A stretch of DNA of 64,000 bases, from the NCBI GenBank assembly GCA_964576115.1, contig CAZNUA010000009.1, positions 20,364-84,363 on the forward strand, in the 5' to 3' direction. Position 1 is the stretch's first letter. Each line of letters starts with the position of its first letter. The position numbers were made by a program, and so were the translations under genes. This DNA comes from an uncultured Gemmatimonadota bacterium (lineage in GTDB: Bacteria; Blakebacterota; Blakebacteria; Blakebacterales; Blakebacteraceae). Below are positions 10,650 through 25,223 of the stretch, piece after piece. The notes below the pieces were generated by a model, which saw only the letters and a list, made by a program, of their open reading frames with translations, was not told the origin of the DNA and searched no databases.

Positions 10650-13247
10650 ATGCGTTCGGATCGTCCTCCGGCCTCGGGGCCGGCTCCCGCCGGCACCCCT
10701 CTCAAACGTTCGACCCGTCCCGCCCGGGAGTGGTTCGAGCCCGCCGTGGCCCGGGCCGTGGCCGCCGAGATCGCGGCCGCGGGCGGGAGCGAGGTGTTCT
10801 TCGTCGGCCGGCTCTCGGATGCCGGCGTCATCGTCGAAGCCGAAGTGGCCGCCCGGGGCAGCCGCGAAGCGGTCCCCGTCATCGCCCGCGCCGTCCGGCC
10901 GGGCGAGATCGTTCTGCACAACCATCCCTCCGGTTCGCTGGCGGCCTCGGGCCCCGATCTCGAGATCGCCGCCGCCTTCGGAAGCGACGGGATCGGCTTC
11001 GCTATCATAGACAACGACTGCCGGAATATCTACGTGGTGGTGGAACCGGGCCGGGCCGACGAGATCCGGCCGGTCGATCTGGCCGAGGTCGAAGCGTTCT
11101 TCGCCCCCGGGGGCCCCCTGAGCCGGACCCTGCCGGGGTACGAACCCCGGACGGTTCAGAGCCACATGGCGCTGGCGGCGGCCGGTGCTTTCAACGACGG
11201 CCGGGTGGTACTCGTAGAAGCCGGCACCGGGGTGGGCAAGAGCCTGGCCTATCTGGTCCCGGCCGTGCTGTGGGCGTGCCGCAATCACCGCCGGGTGGTG
11301 ATCTCGACCAATACCATCAACCTGCAGGAACAGCTCCTGGGATCCGATCTGCCGGTCCTCGAAGAGGCGGGGCTGGAATTCAGGGCGGTTCTGGTCAAGG
11401 GCCGCCGCAACTATGTCTGCCTGCGCAAGGTCGACGAGGTACGGCTCGAACCCGATCTGTTCGCCGAACTCGACGGCGATGTCACAGAACTCGAGCGGCT
11501 CATCACCTGGGCCGGGCGAAGCGAGGACGGCAGTCTGGCCGACCTGCGCCCGCCTCCTCCCGAGCGGGTCTGGGAGAAGGTGGCCACCGAGAGTGACGAC
11601 TGCGCCCGGGCCCGCTGCCCCTGGTTCAACGAGTGCCGTTTCTACCGGGCCCGCCGGCGCGCCGCGACGGCCGATCTGCTGATCGTGAACCACCACCTGC
11701 TCTTCACCGATCTGGCCCTGCGCCAGGCCCTGGGGCCGACCGGCAATACGGCCGTCCTGCCAGCCTACAGCCATGTCATCATCGACGAGGCCCAGCATGT
11801 CGAGGAAACCGCCACGTCTCACTTCGGCACCGACATATCCAGTGTCGGGGTTCAGCGCCAGATCGGACGGCTGCAGCATCGCACCCGTTCCACCCGGGGA
11901 CTGCTCCCGGTGCTGCAGCGCGTCCTGCTGCCCCTGGTCGAAAAAGATCCCCAGGCGGCCCGCGCCCTGGACCGGCTCGAAACCGCAGTACGGCCTGCGT
12001 GCCGGCAGGCCGCCGAAGAGGTGGCGGCCCATTTCTCTCATCTCGACCGGGCTCTGCAGCCGCTGCTCACGGCCTCGGGACCCGAGACCCGCCTGCGCCT
12101 GACCGAGGCGGTCGAGAGCGATCCCGCCTGGGGCGAGGACGCCCGGGTGACCTGCCAGGCACTGCGCCGCGAGCTGGCCAGGCTCGTCGAAGAACTCGAG
12201 AAACTGCTGCGCGACATCGAGCCGCTGCGCGACGAATACGCCGACGACCTCGATTCTCCCCGCCTCGACATCGCCGCCTCGACCGGCCGTCTGAGCCGGG
12301 CCGCAGCGGCCCTGGCCCGCTTTACCGAACCCGACGATAGCGACGCGGAGAGCGTCCGGTGGATCGAAACCTCGCCCCGGCGCCGCGGCACCGCGCGGGT
12401 GGTTCTGGCCACCGCTCCGATCGAGGTCGGCCCCCAGCTGGCCCGGGCCTGCTTCGAGACCGTCGAGGGGGCTCTGCTCTGTTCGGCCACGCTGGCGGTC
12501 GACGGTGACTTCGGGTATACCGCCACCCGTCTCGGGCTCGACCGCCTCGAATCGGGCCGCGTCGTCGCCGATCTGCTCCCCAGCCCTTTCCGCTATGACG
12601 AGCAGACTCTCTTCATGGTTGTCGACGACCTGCCGCTGCCCGATCAGGAGGGGCAGGAGGAGGCGATGGCGGACCTGCTGACCGAGGCGATTGCGGCCGC
12701 CGGGGGGCGCACCCTGGTACTCACCACCGCCTGGGGCGCCCTGCGGCGCCTGCACGAGCGGCTTGCCGAACCCCTGGCCGCGCGGGGGGTGACCCTGCGG
12801 CGTCAGGGCCAGGCTCCCCGGGCCGACCTGCTCGAATCTCTGCGGACCGGAGAGGGCCAGGCTTTGCTGGCCACCGATTCGTTCTGGGAGGGAATCGACG
12901 TACGCGGCGAAGCTCTGAGCCTGGTGGCGCTGACCCGTCTGCCGTTCCGGGTGCCCTCCGAACCGGTTCTGCAGGCCCGCGCCGAACGGCTGGAACGCGA
13001 GGGGGGCAACGCCTTCACGGAATTGCTCCTGCCGATGGCGGTCCTCAAATTCAAGCAGGGCATGGGACGGCTGATCAGGCACCGCAACGATCGCGGGATC
13101 GCCCTGGTGCTGGATCCCCGGATCGTGCGCCGCGCCTATGGCAAGACCTTTGTCGCCTCGCTCGGCTGGGGGGCGCCCGAACCGGTCCCGGCGCGCGAGG
13201 CGCTCGAACGGATCAGGGAGTGGTTTGAAGAGGAGGCGCGTCCATGA
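10650..13247 (+). CDS. DinG/YoaA-family Fe-S SF2 helicase with N-terminal JAB/MPN domain
   Basis: Walker A EAGTGVGKS, motif II DEAQH, four Fe-S Cys (YVC, DDC, RC, EC), FWEGIDVRG, QGMGRLIR. N-terminal HNHPSGSLAASGPD fits the JAMM motif HxHx7Sx2D. Confidence 0.9.
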   Translation: MRSDRPPASGPAPAGTPLKRSTRPAREWFEPAVARAVAAEIAAAGGSEVFFVGRLSDAGVIVEAEVAARGSREAVPVIARAVRPGEIVLHNHPSGSLAASGPDLEIAAAFGSDGIGFAIIDNDCRNIYVVVEPGRADEIRPVDLAEVEAFFAPGGPLSRTLPGYEPRTVQSHMALAAAGAFNDGRVVLVEAGTGVGKSLAYLVPAVLWACRNHRRVVISTNTINLQEQLLGSDLPVLEEAGLEFRAVLVKGRRNYVCLRKVDEVRLEPDLFAELDGDVTELERLITWAGRSEDGSLADLRPPPPERVWEKVATESDDCARARCPWFNECRFYRARRRAATADLLIVNHHLLFTDLALRQALGPTGNTAVLPAYSHVIIDEAQHVEETATSHFGTDISSVGVQRQIGRLQHRTRSTRGLLPVLQRVLLPLVEKDPQAARALDRLETAVRPACRQAAEEVAAHFSHLDRALQPLLTASGPETRLRLTEAVESDPAWGEDARVTCQALRRELARLVEELEKLLRDIEPLRDEYADDLDSPRLDIAASTGRLSRAAAALARFTEPDDSDAESVRWIETSPRRRGTARVVLATAPIEVGPQLARACFETVEGALLCSATLAVDGDFGYTATRLGLDRLESGRVVADLLPSPFRYDEQTLFMVVDDLPLPDQEGQEEAMADLLTEAIAAAGGRTLVLTTAWGALRRLHERLAEPLAARGVTLRRQGQAPRADLLESLRTGEGQALLATDSFWEGIDVRGEALSLVALTRLPFRVPSEPVLQARAERLEREGGNAFTELLLPMAVLKFKQGMGRLIRHRNDRGIALVLDPRIVRRAYGKTFVASLGWGAPEPVPAREALERIREWFEEEARP

Positions 13248-14494
13248 GCGGCGAGCAGACACTCACTGCGGTCGAACGGGCGCGAGCCGGACTTCGCCGG
13301 CTCAAGGTCGAGGCCGAACGTGAGGGCTGGCGGGCCGGCGCGGCGGTGCGCCTCGGGCTGGCGCCGGGACGGGTCAACCTGTTGGGCGAGCATGTCGATT
13401 ACAGCGACGGCTGGGTGATGCCGGTGGCGATCGACCGCCATGTCGCGGCCGCGTATGAGCCCGGCGGCGGGACGCACCTGGTCGTGCACAGCCTCGATTT
13501 CGCCGACACCTTCCGCATCGATCTGACCGAACTCGAAGCCGTGGGCTCCGAGCCCGACCGGTTCGAGGCCCTGGTGGGCGGAGCCCATACCCGCTGGCGG
13601 CGCTACGCCGCCGGGGTCGTCCTCGAACTCGCTGCGGCCGGCGATGTTCCGAGGCCGGGTCTGATGGCGATCGCCGGCGATGTTCCCCTCGGGGCCGGAC
13701 TCTCTTCTTCGGCCGCGCTCGAGGCCGCGCTGTACACCGCCCTGGCCGCCGACCCCGCGGCGAGCCCGGAAGCGGCCCGGCTCTGCCAGCGGGCCGAGAA
13801 CCGTTGGGCGGGGATGCCGTGCGGGATCATGGATCAGTTCGCCAGTTTCATGGGCGAGCGGGAGAAGGTGCTCTACCTGGACTGCCGTACCCTCGAATTC
13901 CGCTGTCTCGCTTTACCCCCCGGGCTCGAACTCACCGTCGTCGACAGCGGGGTGCGGCGCGAGCTGGCAGCTTCGGCCTACCGCGGGCGCCGGCAGGAAA
14001 TCGAAACGGCGTGCGAACTGATCGGCCGCTTCACCGGCCCGATTCAGACCCTGCGCGACGTGCCGGCCGGATCGTTTTCCGCGTTCGAGGACCTGCTCCC
14101 CGAACCGTTGCGCTCCCGGGTCGAACACGTGCTGGGCGGTTTCGACCGGGTCCGGGAGGGAGTCCGGGTTCTGGCCCTGGGGCAGGGCGAAGCCTTCGGC
14201 GAGCTGATGACGGCCTGCCACCGCTCTCTGGCCGAACTCTATGCGGTGAGTATTCCCGAACTGGATCTGATCGTCGCCTCGGCGCTCGAGGTCGAGGGGG
14301 TTCTCGGGGCCCGCCTGACCGGAGCCGGTTTCGGCGGCTGCTGCGTCGTGCTGCATCGTCCGGATTGCACCGCCGAGCTGACCGGGAGGATCTCCTCGGC
14401 CCTTCGCGAGCGCTTCGACATCGAGCCGCTCTGCCATCATCTTGCTGTCGCCGACGGAGCCCGCCGGCTGGAACCGGAAGGAGAGGGCGCATGA
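13244..14494 (+). CDS. galK: Galactokinase (GHMP kinase)
   Basis: PGRVNLLGEHVDY, PLGAGLSSSAA, CGIMDQ, GARLTGAGFGGC; ATGA overlap with the helicase gene. Confidence 0.9.
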   Translation: MSGEQTLTAVERARAGLRRLKVEAEREGWRAGAAVRLGLAPGRVNLLGEHVDYSDGWVMPVAIDRHVAAAYEPGGGTHLVVHSLDFADTFRIDLTELEAVGSEPDRFEALVGGAHTRWRRYAAGVVLELAAAGDVPRPGLMAIAGDVPLGAGLSSSAALEAALYTALAADPAASPEAARLCQRAENRWAGMPCGIMDQFASFMGEREKVLYLDCRTLEFRCLALPPGLELTVVDSGVRRELAASAYRGRRQEIETACELIGRFTGPIQTLRDVPAGSFSAFEDLLPEPLRSRVEHVLGGFDRVREGVRVLALGQGEAFGELMTACHRSLAELYAVSIPELDLIVASALEVEGVLGARLTGAGFGGCCVVLHRPDCTAELTGRISSALRERFDIEPLCHHLAVADGARRLEPEGEGA

Positions 14495-16662
14495 GCATGC
14501 GGCTCATCGGGGTGGATACGGGAGGCACCTTCACCGACCTGGTGGCCCTGACCGCCGGGACACTCGAACACCACAAGCTGGCCAGCACACCGGCCGATCC
14601 CGCCCGGGCGGTCCTGGAGGGTGTCGGCGTCCTGACCGGGGGGGCGGGCCCCGATCCCGACGATCGGGTGGCCCATGGCACCACCGTCGGCACCAACGCC
14701 GTTCTGACCGGACAGGTGGCGGCGGCCGTGCTCGTGACCACCCGCGGTTTCGAGGACGTGCTCGAGATCGGGCGCCAGGACCGGCCCCGGCTCTACGACC
14801 TGGAGGTCGAGCGGCCCCGGCCGCTGATTGCCGCCGGGCGGCGGCTGGGTATTGCGGAGCGGATCGGTCCCGAAGGTCAGGTGGAGCAATCCCTGGCGGC
14901 CGGCGACCGCGCCCTGGCCGGATTGCTCGAGGCGCTGGAAGCCCTCGATCCTCCCCCCGAGGCGATCGCCGTTTCGCTCCTGCACGCCTACGCCAATCCG
15001 AACCACGAACGCCTGATCGGGGCCGAACTCGCGCGCCGCTTCCCCGGGATTCCCCTGACCCTTTCGAGCGAGCTGATTCCCGTCTTCCGGGAGTACGAAC
15101 GGACCTCGACCGTGGTTGTGAACGCCGCCGTACAGCCGGTCATGAGCCGATATCTCGGGCGGCTGCGCGAGGGATTGGGCTCGCAGCGGCTCACCATCAC
15201 GACCTCGAGCGGGGGCTCGGTGTCGGCGCGGCGAGCCGCCGAGGAGCCGGTCCGCACCCTGCTCTCGGGCCCGGCCGCAGGAGTGGCCGGAGCTCTGGCC
15301 GTGGCCCGGCGGGCCGGGTTCGAGAAGGTTCTGACCTTCGATATGGGCGGGACCAGCACCGACGTGGCCCTCTGCGACGGCGCCATCCGCCTGACCGCCG
15401 AGGGAGGGCTGGAGGGCTATCCCCTGCTCGTCGACCAGGTGGATCTGCATACCGTCGGAGCCGGCGGGGGAAGTCTGGCCCGGGTCGACCGGGGGGGCGC
15501 CCTGGTGGTCGGACCGCAGAGCGCCGGGGCCGATCCGGGACCGCTCGCCTACGGCCGCCGCACCGCGGGCGAGGCCGGCGAGGGGGTGACCGTCACCGAC
15601 GCCAACCTTCTGCTCGGCCGGCTGCCCGCCGCCGGCCTGCTGGGGGGCGGCATGGCCCTGGACGACGGGGCCGCGCGGAGCGGACTGGAGCGTCTGGCCG
15701 CCGCGGCCGGCCGGGTGCCCGGAGCGCGCCCGATGACTCCCGAAGAATGTGCCGAGGGAGTGGTGCGGGTTGCGGTCACGACCATGGCGGGGGCCCTGCG
15801 GCGGATCAGTGTGGAGCGGGGCAAGGATCCCCGCGGCTATGTGCTGGTTTCGTTCGGCGGGGCCGGCGCGATGCACGCCGCCGCCCTGGCCCGGGAAATG
15901 GGAATCGACACCGTCCTCATTCCCCGCGAGCCCGGTCTGCTGTCGGCCGTGGGAACGCTGGTGGCCGGTATGCGGATCGACCGGGCGCGCACGGTGCTCG
16001 GGCTGGATCCCGGCACCGACGCCGGAGCCGAGCAGCTCGAATGTGCCTGGCGCGAACTGGAAGATGAAGCCGTCACCGGACTCGACGAGTCGGGTGCGGA
16101 GCAGAGCGGTCGCCGGATCGAACGCTGGGCCGACCTGCGCTACCGCGGCCAGTCGTTCGAGCTGACGGTCGAGGCCTCGACTCCAGCCACATCCGGGCGC
16201 CAACCGCAGCGGGCGCCGGGGGATCTCTGGACCGCACTGCGGGAGCGTTTCGCCGCCGCACACCGGGAGCGCTACGGCTACGATCGGCTCGAGACGCCGG
16301 TCGAACTGGTCTCGATCCGGGTGGCGGGTCACGGCCCCCCGGCGGCCGGCCTCGACACCCTGCTGCCGCCCCTGGCACAAGAGAGCGAAGAGGGCGGAGC
16401 GGCCTCGCCCGGCGCGGCCACCGGAGGCCGGGCAGCCGCCGCGGCCGGGGAACGAGCGCCGGCGCAGGATGCGTATCCGCGGCGGGATATGATCTGGGAG
16501 GGGCAGATGTATCCGACCCCCCAGATTCCCCGCTCGGCGCTTACGGCCGGGACCAGCTTGCGCGGCCCGGCCCTGATGTACGAATTTTCCGCTACCACGA
16601 TCGTCCCCCCCGGAGCCCGGGTCGAGATCGACCCCTGGGGCGATCTGATTCTGAAGGTCTGA
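14491..16662 (+). CDS. Hydantoinase/5-oxoprolinase subunit A (HyuA-like)
   Basis: GVDTGGTFTD, HGTTVGTNA, SGPAAG, DMGGTSTD, GAGGGS, TVTDANLLLG; ATG at 14491 overlaps the galK stop. Confidence 0.92.
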   Translation: MSMRLIGVDTGGTFTDLVALTAGTLEHHKLASTPADPARAVLEGVGVLTGGAGPDPDDRVAHGTTVGTNAVLTGQVAAAVLVTTRGFEDVLEIGRQDRPRLYDLEVERPRPLIAAGRRLGIAERIGPEGQVEQSLAAGDRALAGLLEALEALDPPPEAIAVSLLHAYANPNHERLIGAELARRFPGIPLTLSSELIPVFREYERTSTVVVNAAVQPVMSRYLGRLREGLGSQRLTITTSSGGSVSARRAAEEPVRTLLSGPAAGVAGALAVARRAGFEKVLTFDMGGTSTDVALCDGAIRLTAEGGLEGYPLLVDQVDLHTVGAGGGSLARVDRGGALVVGPQSAGADPGPLAYGRRTAGEAGEGVTVTDANLLLGRLPAAGLLGGGMALDDGAARSGLERLAAAAGRVPGARPMTPEECAEGVVRVAVTTMAGALRRISVERGKDPRGYVLVSFGGAGAMHAAALAREMGIDTVLIPREPGLLSAVGTLVAGMRIDRARTVLGLDPGTDAGAEQLECAWRELEDEAVTGLDESGAEQSGRRIERWADLRYRGQSFELTVEASTPATSGRQPQRAPGDLWTALRERFAAAHRERYGYDRLETPVELVSIRVAGHGPPAAGLDTLLPPLAQESEEGGAASPGAATGGRAAAAAGERAPAQDAYPRRDMIWEGQMYPTPQIPRSALTAGTSLRGPALMYEFSATTIVPPGARVEIDPWGDLILKV

Positions 16663-16679
16663 GAAAGAGGAGTCAGAGG

Positions 16680-17933
16680 GTGAGCGAGGAGACCGACCGT
16701 AGCGACACACCCGGCCGCAAAGCCATTCCCGACCGCAGCGACATCTCCAGCCGCGCCTTTCCGACCCGCGCCGTGCACGCGGGCGAGGGCGACGATCCCG
16801 CCACCGGAGCCGCCGCGGTGCCGATCTACCAGACGGCGCCCTTCGGCTTCACGACCGCACAGGGACTCGAGGATGCTTTTCTGCGGCCGCGGGGCGAGTA
16901 CATCTACACCCGGCTCGGCAATCCGACCGTGCGCGCGCTCGAAACCAAGGTCAGCGCCCTCGAGGGGACCGAGGATGCCGTCGCGGCCGCCTCGGGTATG
17001 GCGGCCATTTCCACGGCCATGTTCACCCTGCTTGAGCCGGGAGGGCGGCTGGTAGCCTACCGCGATGTCTACGGCGGCACCTCGGGATTCTTCCAGCGCC
17101 TGCTCGAGCCATGGGGGATCGAGGTGAACTGGGTCGAGGCGGGAGCCGAAGCCGGTGAGGGCAAGCGCCTGCGGGCCGCCCTGGGGAACGGGGCCGACGT
17201 TCTTTACCTGGAGTCGCCCACCAATCCCACCCTGAAGATCTGCGACCTCGCCGCCGCCGCCCGGCTCGGGCACGAGGCCGGTGCGGTGGTGGTGGTCGAC
17301 AACACCTTCGCGTCGCCCGTGCTGCAGCGCCCTCTCGAGCTGGGGGCCGACCTGGTGGTGCACTCGCTGACCAAGTTCCTCGGCGGTCACGGCGACACCA
17401 CCGGCGGAATCGTGGCCGGAGGGGCCGAAAAAACGACCGCGATCCGGAGCCGGCTGGTCGACCTGGGAGGCATCATGGATCCTCTGGCGGCCTTCCTGCT
17501 GATGCGCGGCATCAAGACGGTCGCGGTCCGGGTCAGGCAGGCCTCCGAAAACGCCCTGGCCCTGGCCCGCTGGCTCGAGGAGCACCCCCGGGTGAAAAAG
17601 GTCAATTACCCGGGGCTCGAGAGCCACCCCGGACACGCCGTGGCTGCGGCGCAGATGAGTGCCTTCGGGGCGATGCTTTCCTTCGAACTCGAAGCCGACC
17701 TCGAGGCCACCCGCCGGGTGGTCGACACCCTGCAGCTGATCAGAATCATCCCCAGTCTGGGGAGCGTGGAAACAACCCTGCTGTTGCCAGCGGTCTCGTC
17801 ACACTACAAGTTGAAGAAAGCAGAGCGTGAAGCGATCGGGATACCCGACGGACTGATCAGGATTTCCGTGGGTATCGAAGAGGTGGATGATGTCGTGGCC
17901 GATCTGGAAAACGGCCTGGCGGTGCTCGCCTGA
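16680..17933 (+). CDS. PLP-dependent trans-sulfuration enzyme (cystathionine gamma-synthase / methionine gamma-lyase family)
   Basis: YTRLGNPT, SGMAAI, VVDNTFASP, HSLTKFLGGH (Schiff-base Lys), SLGSVET. Confidence 0.9.
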   Translation: MSEETDRSDTPGRKAIPDRSDISSRAFPTRAVHAGEGDDPATGAAAVPIYQTAPFGFTTAQGLEDAFLRPRGEYIYTRLGNPTVRALETKVSALEGTEDAVAAASGMAAISTAMFTLLEPGGRLVAYRDVYGGTSGFFQRLLEPWGIEVNWVEAGAEAGEGKRLRAALGNGADVLYLESPTNPTLKICDLAAAARLGHEAGAVVVVDNTFASPVLQRPLELGADLVVHSLTKFLGGHGDTTGGIVAGGAEKTTAIRSRLVDLGGIMDPLAAFLLMRGIKTVAVRVRQASENALALARWLEEHPRVKKVNYPGLESHPGHAVAAAQMSAFGAMLSFELEADLEATRRVVDTLQLIRIIPSLGSVETTLLLPAVSSHYKLKKAEREAIGIPDGLIRISVGIEEVDDVVADLENGLAVLA

Positions 17934-17996
17934 CGTTCACGCCGCACCCGGGGGCGCGATCCGCCGCCGGAGGGCGATAGAGGGATCGACGACAGC

Positions 17997-19043
17997 ATGA
18001 ATGCGAAACGGAAATCGAGCCCGCCGCGCAGCACGCGCGAGAACGCAGCTGCCGACGACGGCTGCTGTTCGAAGGCCGATGTGGTCGGCCTGGGGACCTG
18101 CACCGTCAACTACGAGGCCCTGGTACCCAAACTGGGCTGGCAGAAACCGAAGGTCTTGAGCCAGGGCTTCGAGGTCGCCCCGGGGGGAGCTACCGCCCTG
18201 AGCCTGATCCAGCTCGCCCGGCTGGGGGTCAGTACCGCCTGGCTGGGCATTCTGGGCGACGACGAGGAGGGGGAGATGATCCTCTCGGCCTTCGAGGCCG
18301 AGAATATCTCCACCACCTGCATCGAGAAGCGGCGGGGCCAGCGCTCGCCCTTTTCATGGGTCGCCGTGACCCCGAAAGGGGACCGGGCCACGATCGTCTT
18401 CCCCAACGTGCTGAACTATCTCACGCCCGAAAAGGTCGACGCCGCCATGGTGGGCTGCATCGACTCTTCACTGCACTTTCACACCGACGTGGCCAGCGTG
18501 CCGCTGCGGACCACCCTGCAGGCGATCGAGGTGGCCCGGGCCGCCGACTGCTTCGTGTTGACCGACCTGGACACCGAACCCACCTACCTGGTCGAGGAAG
18601 CCGGTCTGGGCCGGCATAAGGAACTCGAGGCGATCCTGAAGAAGAGCGACGTGGTCAAGGCCTGCTTCGCCGCCGCCACGGCTCTGACCGGAGCCGGGAC
18701 GCCCGCTGAAGCCTGCCGGATTCTGCATTCCACCTATGCTTCGCGCTATACCGTGGTGACCGCCGGCCGCGAAGGCAGCGTGTTGATGTACAACGGCGAG
18801 ACCTGGGACATTCCCGCTCTGGGACCGGCGGTCGACCCCACCGGTGCCGGCGGCGCCTACTTCGGCGGTCTCTCCTACGCCCTGCTGCGGGGCCTGACCG
18901 GCGAGCAGGCCGGTTACTTCGCAGCCGCCTGTGCCGCCTATGCCTGCGCCCGTGTCGGCTCCCTGGCCCTGGGCACACTCGAGGATATCGATGTCATCCT
19001 CAACGGCACTCTCCAGGTCGAGGGGGCCGAAGACGACACCTGA
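17997..19043 (+). CDS. PfkB/ribokinase-fold protein with degenerate catalytic motif
   Basis: Fold signatures PGG..L.QLARLG, LGDDEEG, VVTAGREGS; C-terminal DPTGAGG instead of DxxGAGD. Confidence 0.8.
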   Translation: MNAKRKSSPPRSTRENAAADDGCCSKADVVGLGTCTVNYEALVPKLGWQKPKVLSQGFEVAPGGATALSLIQLARLGVSTAWLGILGDDEEGEMILSAFEAENISTTCIEKRRGQRSPFSWVAVTPKGDRATIVFPNVLNYLTPEKVDAAMVGCIDSSLHFHTDVASVPLRTTLQAIEVARAADCFVLTDLDTEPTYLVEEAGLGRHKELEAILKKSDVVKACFAAATALTGAGTPAEACRILHSTYASRYTVVTAGREGSVLMYNGETWDIPALGPAVDPTGAGGAYFGGLSYALLRGLTGEQAGYFAAACAAYACARVGSLALGTLEDIDVILNGTLQVEGAEDDT

Positions 19044-19044
19044 C

Positions 19045-20697
19045 ATGACACTCGATCCCGTCCTGCTCGAAGTCTACAAGCACCGCTTCGCCGGGGTGGC
19101 TGAAGAGATGGGCGCGGTTCTGCAGCGGACCGCGTCCTCGCCCAACATCAAGGAACGCCGCGACTACTCCTGCGCCCTCTTCGACTCCGCCGCCCGGGTC
19201 GTGGCCCAGGGCGATCACCTGCCGGTCCATCTGGGAAGCATGCCCCGATCGGTGGCCGCAGCCCTCGCGGGGGGGCCGCTGCGTCCGGGTGAGATCGTCA
19301 TCCTGAACGATCCCTTCGCCGGCGGCACGCACCTGCCCGACATCACCATGGTGGCGCCGGTCTGCGTTCCCGACGCCGCTCTCGCAGGGGTACAGGCCTC
19401 CGACCCCCCGCAGGGCTCCGGGGCCGGGAGCGCTTCCGGTCAGGATCGCTTCGAACCGCCCCGGTTTTACGTCGCGGCGCGGGCCCATCATGCCGATGTG
19501 GGCGGCATCGCGCCGGGATCGATGGCGGTCGCGACCGAGATCTACCAGGAGGGCCTGCGCATTCCGCCGATCCGCCTGCGCCGCCCCGGACAGACCGAAC
19601 CCGATCCCGACACCGTGGCGCTCCTGCTCGCCAACGTGCGGACCCCGGCCGAGCGCGAAGGGGACCTGCGGGCGCAGATGGCGGCTCTGGACGTCGGTGT
19701 GCGGCGGATGAACCAGATCATGGCCGAGCGGGGCGCCGGGGAACCGGTCCGCTACGCCGGGCATCTCATCGACTACGCCGAACGGATGACCCGGGCCCTG
19801 ATCGACGCTCTGCCCGACGGCACCTACAGCTTCTCCGACGCTCTGGACGACGACGGGCGGGGGAGCGGGCCCCTGCCGGTCACGGTCGCCGTCACCGTGG
19901 CGGGCGACAGTGTGACGGTCGATTTCACAGGCACCGCCCCGCAGTGCGCGGGACCGATGAACGCGGTCGAAGCGATCACCCTCTCGGCCACCGTCTATGT
20001 CTTCCGCTGTCTGCTCGATCCCTCGGTGCCGCCCAATGCCGGTTCCTTCGCGCCGATCAGGCTCGTGGCTCCCGCCGGCTCGCTCGCCAACGCCCGTCCC
20101 CCGGCGGCGGTGGCGGCCGGGAACGTGGAAACGAGCCAGCGCCTGGTGGACGTTCTCTTCGGGGCCCTGGCTTCGGCCGTGCCCGACCGGGTGCCGGCGG
20201 CCAGCCAGGGGACCATGAACAATCTCTCGATCGGGGGCACCGATCCCCGCACCGGAACGAGTTTTGCCTATTACGAGACCACCGGGGGCGGCATGGGAGG
20301 GCGGCCCTCGGGACCGGGCCCGGCGGCGATCCACTGTCACATGACCAATACCCGCAACACCCCGGTCGAGGCGCTCGAGCACGCCTACCCCTTCCGGGTG
20401 CGCCGCTACGGCATCCGGGCCGGCTCCGGCGGGGCGGGGCGGCATCCCGGTGGAGCGGGGATCGTGCGCGAACTCGAAATGCTGGCACCGGTCACCGTGA
20501 GCCTGCTCACCGAACGGCGCGTGACCGCTCCCTGGGGTCTGCAGGGCGGCTCGCCCGGCGCGGTGGGCCGCAATACCCTGCTGCGTCCGGGCTTCGAGCC
20601 CGAGGATGCGGGCGGCAAGGGCACCTGGCAGCTCGAACCGGGCCAGGCCATCCGGCTCGAAACCCCCGGTGGAGGCGGGTGGGGAGCAGGAAAGTAA
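19045..20697 (+). CDS. Hydantoinase/5-oxoprolinase subunit B (HyuB-like)
   Basis: SPNIKERRDYSCALFD, PVHLGSM, NDPFAGGTHLPD, AHHADVGG, TNTRNTPVE, ETPGGGGWG; ATG starts after a 1-nt gap from the pfkB stop. Confidence 0.92.
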   Translation: MTLDPVLLEVYKHRFAGVAEEMGAVLQRTASSPNIKERRDYSCALFDSAARVVAQGDHLPVHLGSMPRSVAAALAGGPLRPGEIVILNDPFAGGTHLPDITMVAPVCVPDAALAGVQASDPPQGSGAGSASGQDRFEPPRFYVAARAHHADVGGIAPGSMAVATEIYQEGLRIPPIRLRRPGQTEPDPDTVALLLANVRTPAEREGDLRAQMAALDVGVRRMNQIMAERGAGEPVRYAGHLIDYAERMTRALIDALPDGTYSFSDALDDDGRGSGPLPVTVAVTVAGDSVTVDFTGTAPQCAGPMNAVEAITLSATVYVFRCLLDPSVPPNAGSFAPIRLVAPAGSLANARPPAAVAAGNVETSQRLVDVLFGALASAVPDRVPAASQGTMNNLSIGGTDPRTGTSFAYYETTGGGMGGRPSGPGPAAIHCHMTNTRNTPVEALEHAYPFRVRRYGIRAGSGGAGRHPGGAGIVRELEMLAPVTVSLLTERRVTAPWGLQGGSPGAVGRNTLLRPGFEPEDAGGKGTWQLEPGQAIRLETPGGGGWGAGK

Positions 20698-20805
20698 GCC
20701 CGGACAAAGAGGCCGGGAGCCGGTTCGACCTCCCCTTTTGTCGGGGGTCGCTGTAGGATGGTATCTCGATGAGCTTCCTACCCCCCCCAGAGCGAGGATC
20801 TGTGA

Positions 20806-21972
20806 TTGGACGCCTGTCTGGTCCTTGAAGACGGCCGTGTGTTTCGGGGCAAGGCCTTCGGTGCCGTGCGTGACGCTCCCGGGGAAGTCGTTTTCAATAC
20901 CGCCATGACAGGGTACCAGGAGATCCTCACCGACCCCTCCTACGCCGGTCAGATCGTGGTCATGACCTACCCCCTGATCGGAAACTACGGCGTGACCCCT
21001 GAAGACGCCGAATCACGCGGGGTGTGGCCCGAGGGATTCGTAGTGCGCGAGTACAGTGATCTCTTCTCGAACTGGCGGGGACGACAGGACCTGGTGCTCT
21101 ACCTGCGCGAGCACCGGGTGGCGGGCATCACCGGGGTCGATACCCGGGCCCTGACCCGGCACATCCGTTCGGCCGGCGCCATGCGCGGGATCATCTCGAC
21201 CGACCCCGACACCGACCGCCTCCTCGAGGCGGTCAGGGCCAGCCCCGAGATGTCGGGGCGGGACCTGGTCCACGACGTCACCGTCGCCGAAGCCTACGGC
21301 TGGCACGAGCCGACCCCGATCCCCTTCGGCATCCACGACGAAACCCTCGCTCACGAGGCGGTGCCGGCCGGGGAGCCCCCCCTGCCCGCCGGCGAGCTGC
21401 GCGTGGTGGTGATGGATTACGGCGTGAAATACAACATCCTGCGGCGGCTGGTGGATGTCGGGGGGACGGTGACGGTCGTGCCCGCCGACACGAGCGCCGA
21501 CGAGGTGCTGGCGCTGCAACCCCACGGGGTGGTCTTTTCGAACGGTCCCGGCGATCCGGCCGCCCTGCCCGGCATCGTCGAGACCGCCGGTCATCTGGCC
21601 CGGGCGGTCCCCTGTTTCGGGATCTGCCTCGGGCACCAGATCCTGGGCCAGGCCTTCGGCTATCGAACCTTCAAGCTCGCTTTCGGCCACCACGGCGCCA
21701 ACCATCCGGTCCGGCGCCTGGATACGGGCCGGGTCGAGATCACCAGCCAGAACCACGGCTTCGCGGTCGATCTCGCTTCAGGGGGCTCGGGGCTCGTCGA
21801 GACCCACCTCAACCTCAACGACGGCACCAACGAGGGCTTCCGGCACGCCGAACTGCCCGTTTTCGCCGTGCAGTACCATCCCGAGGCTTCGCCGGGACCG
21901 CGTGATGCGGCCTACCTGTTCCGGGAATTCGTCCGTGCCATGGGCACCTGCCGCGATTCGGGAGGGCCCTGA
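20806..21972 (+). CDS. carA: Carbamoyl-phosphate synthase small subunit
   Basis: [38 protein letters not shown]. Confidence 0.97.
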
Positions 21973-21974
21973 AA

Positions 21975-25219
<3,245 letters not shown>

Positions 25220-25223
<4 letters not shown>

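Follow-up and report, generated by a model that had tools for sequence, protein, structure and literature searches.

The gene that we call pfkB* encodes a protein of the PfkB/ribokinase fold in which the catalytic aspartate of the anion hole is replaced by glycine. On balance our data favour a pseudokinase maintained by selection, probably serving the HyuAB/PLP system, among whose genes its own lies, as a ligand-binding or a structural partner (Table 1). Judged by sequence it is probably a pseudoenzyme, since essential catalytic residues have been lost while the fold is intact and the gene is under purifying selection across species: dN/dS is 0.09-0.23, like that of hyuA, the PLP gene and hyuB, and pfkB* with Gly286 is present in 10 of 10 genomes of its GTDB phylum. 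A non-catalytic helper or sensor is its most likely role; that it lacks kinase activity, binds a ligand and partners HyuAB we infer from comparative evidence. The preliminary description of this DNA had allowed for either a pseudokinase or altered chemistry. Our analysis supports that choice and leans to the pseudokinase, because the residues of the pocket (and those of the NxxE region and the adenine-side Asn) are variable; had a new substrate been acquired, one would expect the pocket to have been fixed anew.

Table 1. Features of the pfkB* locus; positions refer to the window, the whole 64,000-nucleotide stretch that was analysed
Feature	Position	Strand	Basis
galactokinase-like GHMP kinase (galK), upstream in the same tightly packed run	13244..14494	+	Pfam GalKase_gal_bdg, GHMP_kinases_N, GHMP_kinases_C; TIGR00131 231.6 bits (cut-off 226.65)
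hyuA, ATP-binding subunit, hydantoinase/oxoprolinase family	14491..16662	+	Pfam Hydantoinase_A 2.7e-83, Hydant_A_N 2.1e-39
Cys/Met-metabolism PLP enzyme, γ-lyase/γ-synthase family	16680..17933	+	Pfam Cys_Met_Meta_PP 2.2e-131
pfkB*, PfkB/ribokinase-fold protein, 348 aa, GAGG replacing GAGD; read as a probable pseudokinase	17997..19043	+	Pfam PF00294, AF2/Foldseek, orthologues
N-terminal extension, ~27 residues, basic, predicted disordered	17997..18077	+	pLDDT <50 over residues 1-23; sister clade without extension
N-terminal strand G33-T-C-T-V-N-Y39; N38 for sugar-binding Asp (RbsK D16)	18093..18113	+	MAFFT alignment
GG motif G63-G-A-T-A-L68; A65 for RbsK K43, L68 for N46	18183..18200	+	MAFFT alignment
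anion-hole motif D280-P-T-G-A-G-G286	18834..18854	+	sequence reading; alignment to solved kinases and E. coli RbsK D255
hyuB, hydantoinase B/oxoprolinase subunit	19045..20697	+	Pfam Hydantoinase_B 1.1e-200

Assignment of PfkB* to its family comes from both profile and structure. The protein matches Pfam PF00294 over residues 27-322 with 125.9 bits (2.6e-36; cut-off 25.8), and its AF2 model (pLDDT 85.5, pTM 0.85) has ribokinases, YihV and YdjH as its only top Foldseek matches (TM 0.72-0.76; 0.74-0.76 to the ribokinases). In the model the fold is intact, with Rossmann-like core and β-sheet lid both kept. The ribokinase models TIGR02152 (an equivalog; 82.1 bits, cut-off 299.65) and NF008353 (65.1 bits, cut-off 341) score below threshold, no NCBIfam model reaches its cut-off, and a look-up in the ESM Atlas returned generic PfkB clusters only. 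Set beside E. coli RbsK (1RKD) and the sulfofructose kinase YihV (7AG6), PfkB* has a like fold (TM 0.74-0.76, Foldseek E ~1e-23), a GG motif, equivalents of the T223/G228 loops and of D249, and the G-A-G of the anion hole. It departs from RbsK at a series of functional side chains.

Foremost among these is residue 286. The preliminary description had read DPTGAGG, with GGC (18852-18854) at the place of the catalytic Asp, and the alignments bear this out: Gly286 stands opposite the Asp of TGAGD/TAAGD when the protein is aligned by HMMER with the ribokinases of Leishmania and Thermus and with E. coli YihV, and opposite catalytic D255 in a MAFFT alignment with E. coli RbsK (from NC_000913), so that the DTxGAGD signature lacks its final Asp. 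In the pseudouridine kinase of Arabidopsis, mutation of the corresponding Asp to Ala cuts activity to 0.6% (PMC7797080). Two further losses claimed at the outset, of the N-terminal Asp in GTCTVNY and of the GGxxxN Asn in GGATAL, are likewise found in the RbsK alignment (D16 to N38, N46 to L68), together with N14 to T36 and K43 to A65. G63-G64 are kept and the polar acceptor residues around them are replaced; in two orthologues the dipeptide itself reads AG. The NxxE motif is missing (N187 to C223, E190 to A226) and its region varies within the GAGG clade, while on the adenine side H279 of RbsK, an Asn in most PfkBs, is A310, a replacement that had escaped earlier notice.

The nearest relatives of PfkB* form an uncharacterised GAGD clade, mainly from MAGs of Acidobacteriota ('Ca. 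Acidiferrales') and Vulcanimicrobiota (members P0025-P0030 and P0048; loci L028-L056); identity is 36-42%, and the score to the clade profile 299 bits. The two clades have in common FPNV, HFHT[ED], DLDxxP, a YL/YF-x-E-x-GLG insertion and K-x-C for the NxxE Asn – the sister clade, too, is without a canonical NxxE. Unlike PfkB*, however, its members carry the D16-equivalent Asp, the GGxxxN Asn, the TGAGD Asp and the FANA Asn, each in at least 90%; they score 184-194 bits against PF00294, compared with 126 for PfkB*, and have no N-terminal extension. In a quick-search tree with SH-aLRT support only, the GAGG proteins form a single clade (SH-aLRT 100) nested among GAGD proteins (support 96), its stem measuring 1.48 changes per site and its internal branches 0.02-0.28; on this phylogeny the GAGG clade has a single origin. 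Gly286 is found in all 16 aligned orthologues (54-89% identity to the protein of the window), so that the observation named beforehand as counting against the reading, an Asp in close orthologues, was looked for and not found; Asp appears in the nearest outgroup clade. Among the best 150 of 1.84e9 (1.84 billion) representative proteins Asp occupies the site in 141, and a genuine Gly occurs in the GAGG clade only; the same genome carries three further PfkB genes, all of them GAGD.

Relaxation in the GAGG clade is concentrated at functional side chains, taking in 9 of 13 such positions against 54 of 306 others (Fisher p = 1e-4), the 13 having been listed beforehand, after the 1RKD literature, as what we take to be the functional residues of RbsK. 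The equivalents of RbsK N14, D16, N46, I110, I112, E188, T189, H279 and S294 are among the sites that vary in the GAGG clade although conservation over 33 sister sequences is 90% or more; those of K43 and D255 are fixed to other residues. At position 38, where 90% or more of the sister clade has Asp, 11 sequences have N, three H and two L; at position 68 the Asn of the sister clade gives way to L, V or M; and at position 65 Ala is fixed in the GAGG clade, Val in its sister. Constraint is relaxed in the acceptor pocket, around NxxE and at the adenine Asn. At the same time 19 positions are invariant in the GAGG clade yet variable in its sister, among them D28, Q56, R116, E145, D156, E178, E201, K208, Y247, R250, Y251, Y265 and Y307, and the glycine-rich phosphate loops (T255, G260 and D-x-T-G-A-G-G) do not vary at all. 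This last feature shows a phosphate site still under constraint; it would also suit a working phosphotransferase.

A critical issue, then, is whether PfkB* might be an active enzyme of altered chemistry. It could bind nucleotide and phosphorylate a group such as a carboxylate, phosphate or thiolate, for which a general base is unnecessary, or take its base from another residue, such as D164, H162 or E59, or from a group of the substrate; Gly286 would make room for the acceptor, and what is formed would pass to the PLP enzyme or to HyuAB. The invariance of the anion-hole loop and of the T255 and G260 loops is in keeping with such an enzyme, as are the retention of H160, H162, D164, D190 and D192 and the constancy of Gly286, which has not drifted to Ala, Ser or Asn. 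The pocket, however, has not been re-fixed: within the clade position 36 is T, M, V or S, 38 is N, H or L, 68 is L, V or M, and 132-134 are variable, as are 222, 224, 225 and 229 of the NxxE region, and the adenine Asn equivalent at 310 is A, S or G. No new conserved polar residue is found at the acceptor site, and the fall in Pfam score relative to the sister clade points the same way. ThiD (HMP-P kinase) and ThiM (hydroxyethylthiazole kinase), both of the ribokinase superfamily, are active with Cys at the GxGD Asp position and so show that the superfamily tolerates replacement of this Asp with activity kept. But the Cys is nucleophilic or basic, unlike Gly; the two belong to families apart from PF00294 (PF08543 and PF02110); and their substrate pockets are conserved, whereas that of PfkB* is relaxed. 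We therefore consider altered chemistry unlikely, while PfkB* may have weak or substrate-assisted kinase activity.

A selected pseudokinase could have come about as follows. The common ancestor of this small phylum would have carried an active PfkB gene, related to the GAGD clade now found mainly in Acidobacteriota. In a burst of change this gene would have lost its catalytic base (Asp to Gly286) and its polar acceptor residues (equivalents of RbsK D16, K43 and N46), and in the same burst constraint on the NxxE region and on the Asn that contacts adenine would have been lifted; the Rossmann-like core, the β-sheet lid and the glycine-rich phosphate loops (T255, G260, D280-x-T-G-A-G) would have been kept throughout. 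Ordinary purifying selection would have followed, while charged and aromatic residues at other positions became invariant. PfkB* would now be a non-catalytic component of the HyuA/HyuB/PLP system, perhaps a structural or assembly subunit; alternatively it may be a sensor whose retained anion hole binds a ligand, anionic or phosphorylated, and which modulates the ATP-dependent HyuAB reaction.

The proposed partners of PfkB* lie on either side of its gene. HyuA matches N-methylhydantoinase (1e-107) and caprolactamase/5-oxoprolinase (7e-87) in the PDB, HyuB matches N-methylhydantoinase (8e-81) and the caprolactamase beta subunit (1e-60), and the PLP enzyme, whose best PDB matches are methionine γ-lyases (~1e-104), keeps the PLP lysine (SLTK) and has YGGT in place of YGCT. 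Spacing is close: the ATG of hyuA overlaps the galK stop (ATGA); pfkB* begins 63 nt past the stop of the PLP gene, with its ATG 11 nt 3' of a Shine-Dalgarno-like GAGGG site; and between its TGA (19041-19043) and the ATG of hyuB at 19045 there is a single nucleotide, the gap being 1-30 nt in eight of nine genomes. Co-transcription of pfkB* with hyuB, and translational coupling of the two, seem likely. A scan gave only one plausible promoter, upstream of the helicase gene, and no terminator-like site between genes (count not above shuffles), which agrees with one transcript without proving one.

The order hyuA, PLP, pfkB*, hyuB is kept in all contigs of the phylum that are of sufficient length, and also at those metagenome loci that reach far enough upstream (L073, L075, L076 and L077). 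At more distant HyuB loci (46-57% identity) hyuA lies directly upstream in ~55 of 75, and a PLP or PfkB gene is found there in none of the 75. It is the conserved order, the short gaps and the absence of the arrangement at these distant loci that point to a partnership with HyuAB. Sister-clade genes had no conserved neighbours at the loci examined, nor did hyuA or hyuB adjoin them. At one of 26 sister loci, L034, a PLP γ-family gene is found ~3 kb away; we judge this coincidental.

Within the phylum, however, synteny extends over all 15 kb and takes in genes without functional relation (the helicase gene, galK and carAB), and gene order in so shallow a group is therefore weak evidence of a functional link. 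This equal retention of unrelated genes is what might be expected were PfkB* a selected, non-catalytic protein with an independent role – a metabolite-binding regulator, for example – and its position between hyuA and hyuB an accident of history frozen by the shallow divergence of the phylum. The lack of conserved neighbours in the sister clade agrees with such independence, as does a search among proteins of 610-2000 aa that found no fusions of pfkB* relatives with HyuA, HyuB or the PLP enzyme (itself weak evidence). Against it, hyuA and hyuB adjoin in most distant relatives, and it is unusual for the two genes of an obligate two-subunit enzyme to be parted by an insertion; the gap to hyuB is a single nucleotide here and short in other genomes; and the linkage of PLP, pfkB* and hyuB survives in L075 despite a different downstream neighbour. 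An independent role thus seems to us improbable. As for sequencing or assembly error, or a decaying pseudogene, to which the loss of the catalytic residues and nothing further lends itself, the preliminary description was right to discount error, and both are ruled out, since the substitutions are fixed in all orthologues of a gene under purifying selection, the reading frame is unbroken, the Gly recurs in ten independent MAGs spelled by four codons (GGC, GGG, GGA and GGT), and the exact protein of the window occurs on four contigs.

To our knowledge, pseudoenzymes of the ribokinase/PfkB fold are known from plant plastids only (FLN1 and FLN2). Our searches of the literature on PfkB pseudokinases, ribokinase pseudoenzymes and PfkB with hydantoinase found this plant precedent alone, and found neither a bacterial PfkB-fold pseudoenzyme nor a PfkB-like partner of a HyuAB-type enzyme; on the literature searched, a non-catalytic helper or sensor of the PfkB fold in bacteria is of a kind not yet described. 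The FRUCTOKINASE-LIKE proteins FLN1 and FLN2 have the PfkB fold and no detectable kinase activity, and are non-catalytic partners in the plastid RNA polymerase complex (PMC5405513). They are a precedent for non-catalytic PfkB-fold partners in a larger complex and differ from PfkB* in several respects: they are eukaryotic, fall within the fructokinase branch without specific kinship to the GAGG clade, and partner an RNA polymerase rather than the HyuAB-type enzyme proposed here. FLN chains are weak matches to PfkB* (8xzv and 8qma; E ~5e-5 to 8e-4), and the substitutions in the two are of independent origin.

A more far-reaching and decidedly tentative form of the pseudokinase reading would have a four-gene machine – HyuA, PLP γ-enzyme, PfkB* and HyuB – specific to an uncultured sediment phylum and coupling the opening of a lactam or hydantoin ring to PLP-dependent γ-chemistry, with PfkB* as its phospho-ligand sensor or as an obligate subunit that does not catalyse. 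PfkB* would then be the first bacterial PfkB-fold pseudoenzyme, and the ATP-dependent lactamase/carboxylase family would gain an accessory subunit of a new type. ATP-dependent hydantoinases, oxoprolinases, caprolactamases and acetone carboxylases are of biocatalytic interest and vary in subunit composition; an extra component of HyuAB, if that is what PfkB* is, would bear on how these enzymes are assembled or regulated. The clade also offers a natural case of kinase inactivation, with a clear, presumably active GAGD sister group, a single origin and defined changed sites. Public annotations across the phylum name the orthologues 'carbohydrate kinase' or 'sugar/nucleoside kinase', labels that probably mis-state its metabolism.

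Two minor features of the family remain to be recorded. PfkB-SIS fusions occur in more distant relatives and are uninformative about the GAGG clade in particular. The N-terminal extension of PfkB*, for its part, starts with M-x-A-[KR]-R-x-S-S-P-P-R, a sequence common to the closer orthologues.

On balance we favour the view that the gene encoding the GAGG protein, a PfkB-fold protein with GAGG in place of the GAGD of active kinases, specifies a selected pseudokinase working with the HyuA/HyuB/PLP system: the two subunits of an ATP-dependent hydantoinase/oxoprolinase and an enzyme of the γ-lyase/γ-synthase family. The firmer part of this reading, which we think very probable from the sequence comparisons below, is that canonical kinase chemistry has been lost and the protein maintained by selection. 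The reading frame is intact (348 residues), and PfkB membership is evident from both profile (Pfam PfkB match 2.6e-36, residues 27-322) and fold. No NCBIfam equivalog model came near its cut-off, the best scores being 83 against 300 bits (5-dehydro-2-deoxygluconokinase) and 82 against ~300 (ribokinase), and the family's catalytic signatures are missing, both GAGD and NxxE as well as the polar residues around the GG motif.

Codons 280-287, read directly from the DNA, are GAC CCC ACC GGT GCC GGC GGC GCC (D-P-T-G-A-G-G-A), with GGC for Gly286 as the preliminary description had it. In HMMER alignments with solved Leishmania and Thermus ribokinases and E. coli YihV, Gly286 lies opposite the Asp of TGAGD or TAAGD; 'gtctvny' pairs with 'gscfldy', and 'ggatal' with 'ggkgan'. 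Alignment with E. coli ribokinase (RbsK, 1RKD; gene from NC_000913) places N14, D16, K43, N46, N187, E190, D255 and H279 of RbsK against T36, N38, A65, L68, C223, A226, G286 and A310, respectively, and T223, G228, D249 and A253-G254 against T255, G260, D280 and A284-G285. The three substitutions named earlier (anion-hole Asp, N-terminal Asp and GGxxxN Asn) are therefore real, and the NxxE region and the adenine-side His/Asn are changed as well. In Arabidopsis pseudouridine kinase the Asp is the base, and a D311A mutant keeps 0.6% of activity (PMC7797080).

We compared 16 members of the GAGG clade (mean pairwise identity 64%) site by site with 33 sequences (71%) of the sister clade, the nearest GAGD-bearing group. 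Conserved in both are 63 positions, including structural glycines and phosphate loops (G64, T255, G260, D280, T282, G283, A284 and G285 among them); 17 are fixed differently, including A65 versus V (RbsK K43), D164 versus E and G286 versus D. Relaxed positions, which vary in the GAGG clade where the sister clade shows 90% conservation or more, include 35-38 (sister C-T-V-D; RbsK N14, D16), 68-69 (sister N-N; RbsK N46), 132-134 in the lid strand (RbsK I110, I112), 222, 224, 225 and 229 in the NxxE region, 310 (sister Asn; RbsK H279) and 324 (RbsK S294). Among the 13 positions that we take, from the 1RKD literature, to be functional side chains of RbsK, a list written before the test, nine are changed or relaxed, against 54 of 306 others (Fisher one-sided p = 1e-4). 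Nineteen positions variable in the sister clade are invariant in the GAGG clade: D28, G47, Q56, R116, E145, A149, D156, L174, E178, E201, G203, K208, Y247, R250, Y251, Y265, G299, G302 and Y307. Since constraint was relaxed at the acceptor pocket and at side chains contacting the nucleotide, and arose anew at other sites, our interpretation is that the kinase function was lost and another role acquired, perhaps that of a binding surface. The preliminary description had left the choice between a pseudokinase and altered chemistry. Chemistry that needs no general base would fit the invariance of the phosphate loops and Gly286 in the clade, but the acceptor pocket is unconstrained; we consider it unlikely, and the pseudokinase is modestly preferred.

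The AlphaFold2 model of the GAGG protein (alignment A1; pLDDT 85.5, pTM 0.85) confines predicted disorder to residues 1-23, 48-54 and 341-348, and Foldseek matches it in the PDB to ribokinases, YihV and YdjH (E ~1e-23, TM 0.72-0.76); the core and β-lid are thus intact. The protein begins with a basic, predicted disordered extension of ~27 residues, whose start (M-x-A-[KR]-R-x-S-S-P-P-R) is conserved among closer orthologues (family f1); the sister clade and canonical PfkBs are without it.

An orthologue-profile search of 1.84e9 representative proteins returned the clade's own representative (598 bits) and one fragment; the next score was 299 bits. Of the best 150 matches, 141 have Asp at the position aligned to 286; genuine Gly is limited to the GAGG clade, and two further rows without Asp are scrambled at the C-terminus. 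In a quick IQ-TREE search (LG+C20+F+G4 PMSF, SH-aLRT support only) the GAGG proteins form one clade (support 100) nested among GAGD proteins (support 96). Its stem measures 1.48 changes per site against internal branches of 0.02-0.28, which is the pattern of a single burst of change followed by conservation.

Features of the gene run and its surroundings in the window
Feature	Position	Strand
Promoter-like site	10616	
Conserved 15-kb order	10650-25223	
RadC-JAB/DinG helicase	10650-13247	+
galK-like	13244-14494	+
hyuA	14491-16662	+
PLP γ-family enzyme	16680-17933	+
Sigma-70-like match	17722-17749	
GAGG gene (pfkB-like)	17997-19043	+
N-terminal extension	17997-18077	
Gly286 codon (GGC)	18852-18854	
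hyuB	19045-20697	+
carA	20806-21972	+
carB	21975-25223	+

HyuAB/PLP as the partner is a more tentative proposal. ATGA overlaps mark the helicase/galK and galK/hyuA junctions, and gaps of 17, 63 and 1 nt follow hyuA, the PLP gene and the GAGG gene; across genomes the last is 1-30 nt in eight of nine. A signal scan found no terminator-like sites between the genes of the run, whose sole notable promoter-like site lies upstream of the helicase. A weak sigma-70-like match (TCGACA, 16 nt, AATCAT) within the 3'-terminal part of the PLP gene, ~250 nt upstream of the GAGG gene, may represent an internal promoter or have arisen by chance.

The 15-kb helicase-to-carB order holds in each contig of the phylum that has the necessary length, and across all three families (L011, L012, L014, L015, L017, L018); because the whole order is conserved in a phylum of shallow divergence, synteny by itself argues only weakly for a functional link. 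Five of 80 metagenome HyuB loci fetched belong to the same lineage (72-81% identity to the window's HyuB), and the GAGG gene lies directly upstream of hyuB in all four with enough upstream sequence (L073, L075, L076, L077), the fifth, L074, having just 169 nt. L075 (1-5692) keeps the PLP gene, GAGG gene and hyuB, followed by a gene that is not a carA orthologue. It is the one case found of broken flanking synteny; a partial carA match (34%) lies much further along. A pseudokinase unrelated to HyuAB would be compatible with the shallow synteny, but the arrangement kept in L075 speaks against it; we consider this explanation improbable. At the 75 loci of 46-57% identity neither a PLP nor a PfkB gene was detected, and hyuA directly precedes hyuB in ~55; the two-gene insertion between hyuA and hyuB is thus derived and lineage-specific. 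Sister-clade kinases, in the loci compared, never adjoin hyuAB and have no conserved neighbour. Some HyuB relatives (L092, L129, L087, L102; 46-54% identity) have no visible hyuA in flanks of 3-6 kb, so hyuB may in some cases stand alone or be paired at a distance.

As a pseudokinase allied to this system, the GAGG protein would serve as a structural subunit or, alternatively, act as a sensor through the anion hole that it has kept. The nearest structures of HyuA and HyuB are a fused N-methylhydantoinase (7HK5) and caprolactamase (6YRA). The PLP enzyme retains its lysine (SLTK), and its closest PDB relatives are methionine γ-lyases, of which YGCT is typical. It has YGGT there, and its ~25 N-terminal residues are non-homologous; it may therefore be a γ-lyase, a γ-synthase or a sulfhydrylase.

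Sequencing error, already discounted in the preliminary description, and gene decay are excluded: Gly286 is present in 10 of 10 species genomes of the phylum, encoded by GGC, GGG, GGA or GGT, and dN/dS is 0.09-0.23 (pairwise NG86; dS near saturation for deeper pairs), a range that cannot be told apart from those of hyuA (0.12-0.30), the PLP gene (0.09-0.20) and hyuB (0.07-0.21). These ten genomes, all that the GTDB phylum holds, span one order, three families and six genera, under the NCBI titles 'Gemmatimonadota bacterium', 'bacterium' or 'Zixiibacteriota'; the sources of the MAGs are marine or hydrothermal sediments. When 5.8e9 proteins were searched by word index, ~23 clusters matched at 59-89% identity; below them came a distinct group at 32-42% and, after it, ordinary fructokinases. 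The 16 orthologues aligned all have TGAGG[AS], none with the Asp that would have marked an ordinary kinase; relatives at ~40% identity have TGAGDA and retain the N-terminal Asp and GGxxxN Asn. The window's genome has three further PfkB genes, each with normal GAGD.

The idea of a non-catalytic PfkB protein has a plant precedent in FLN1 and FLN2, in which kinase activity could not be detected (PMC5405513); they are unrelated to the GAGG protein within the family, and their partner is the plastid RNA polymerase. Full-text literature searches turned up neither a PfkB pseudoenzyme from bacteria nor a PfkB-like protein acting with hydantoinase/oxoprolinase enzymes. The sister clade (L028-L056; P0025-P0030, P0048) is unusual in its own right: a conserved P-C-K-A-A-A-x-E replaces canonical NxxE, and a 10-residue YF-x-E-A-G-L-G insertion is shared with the GAGG protein. 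More distant relatives include C-terminal SIS (sugar isomerase) fusions (P0082, P0100, P0094, P0148) and a tandem double PfkB (P0078).
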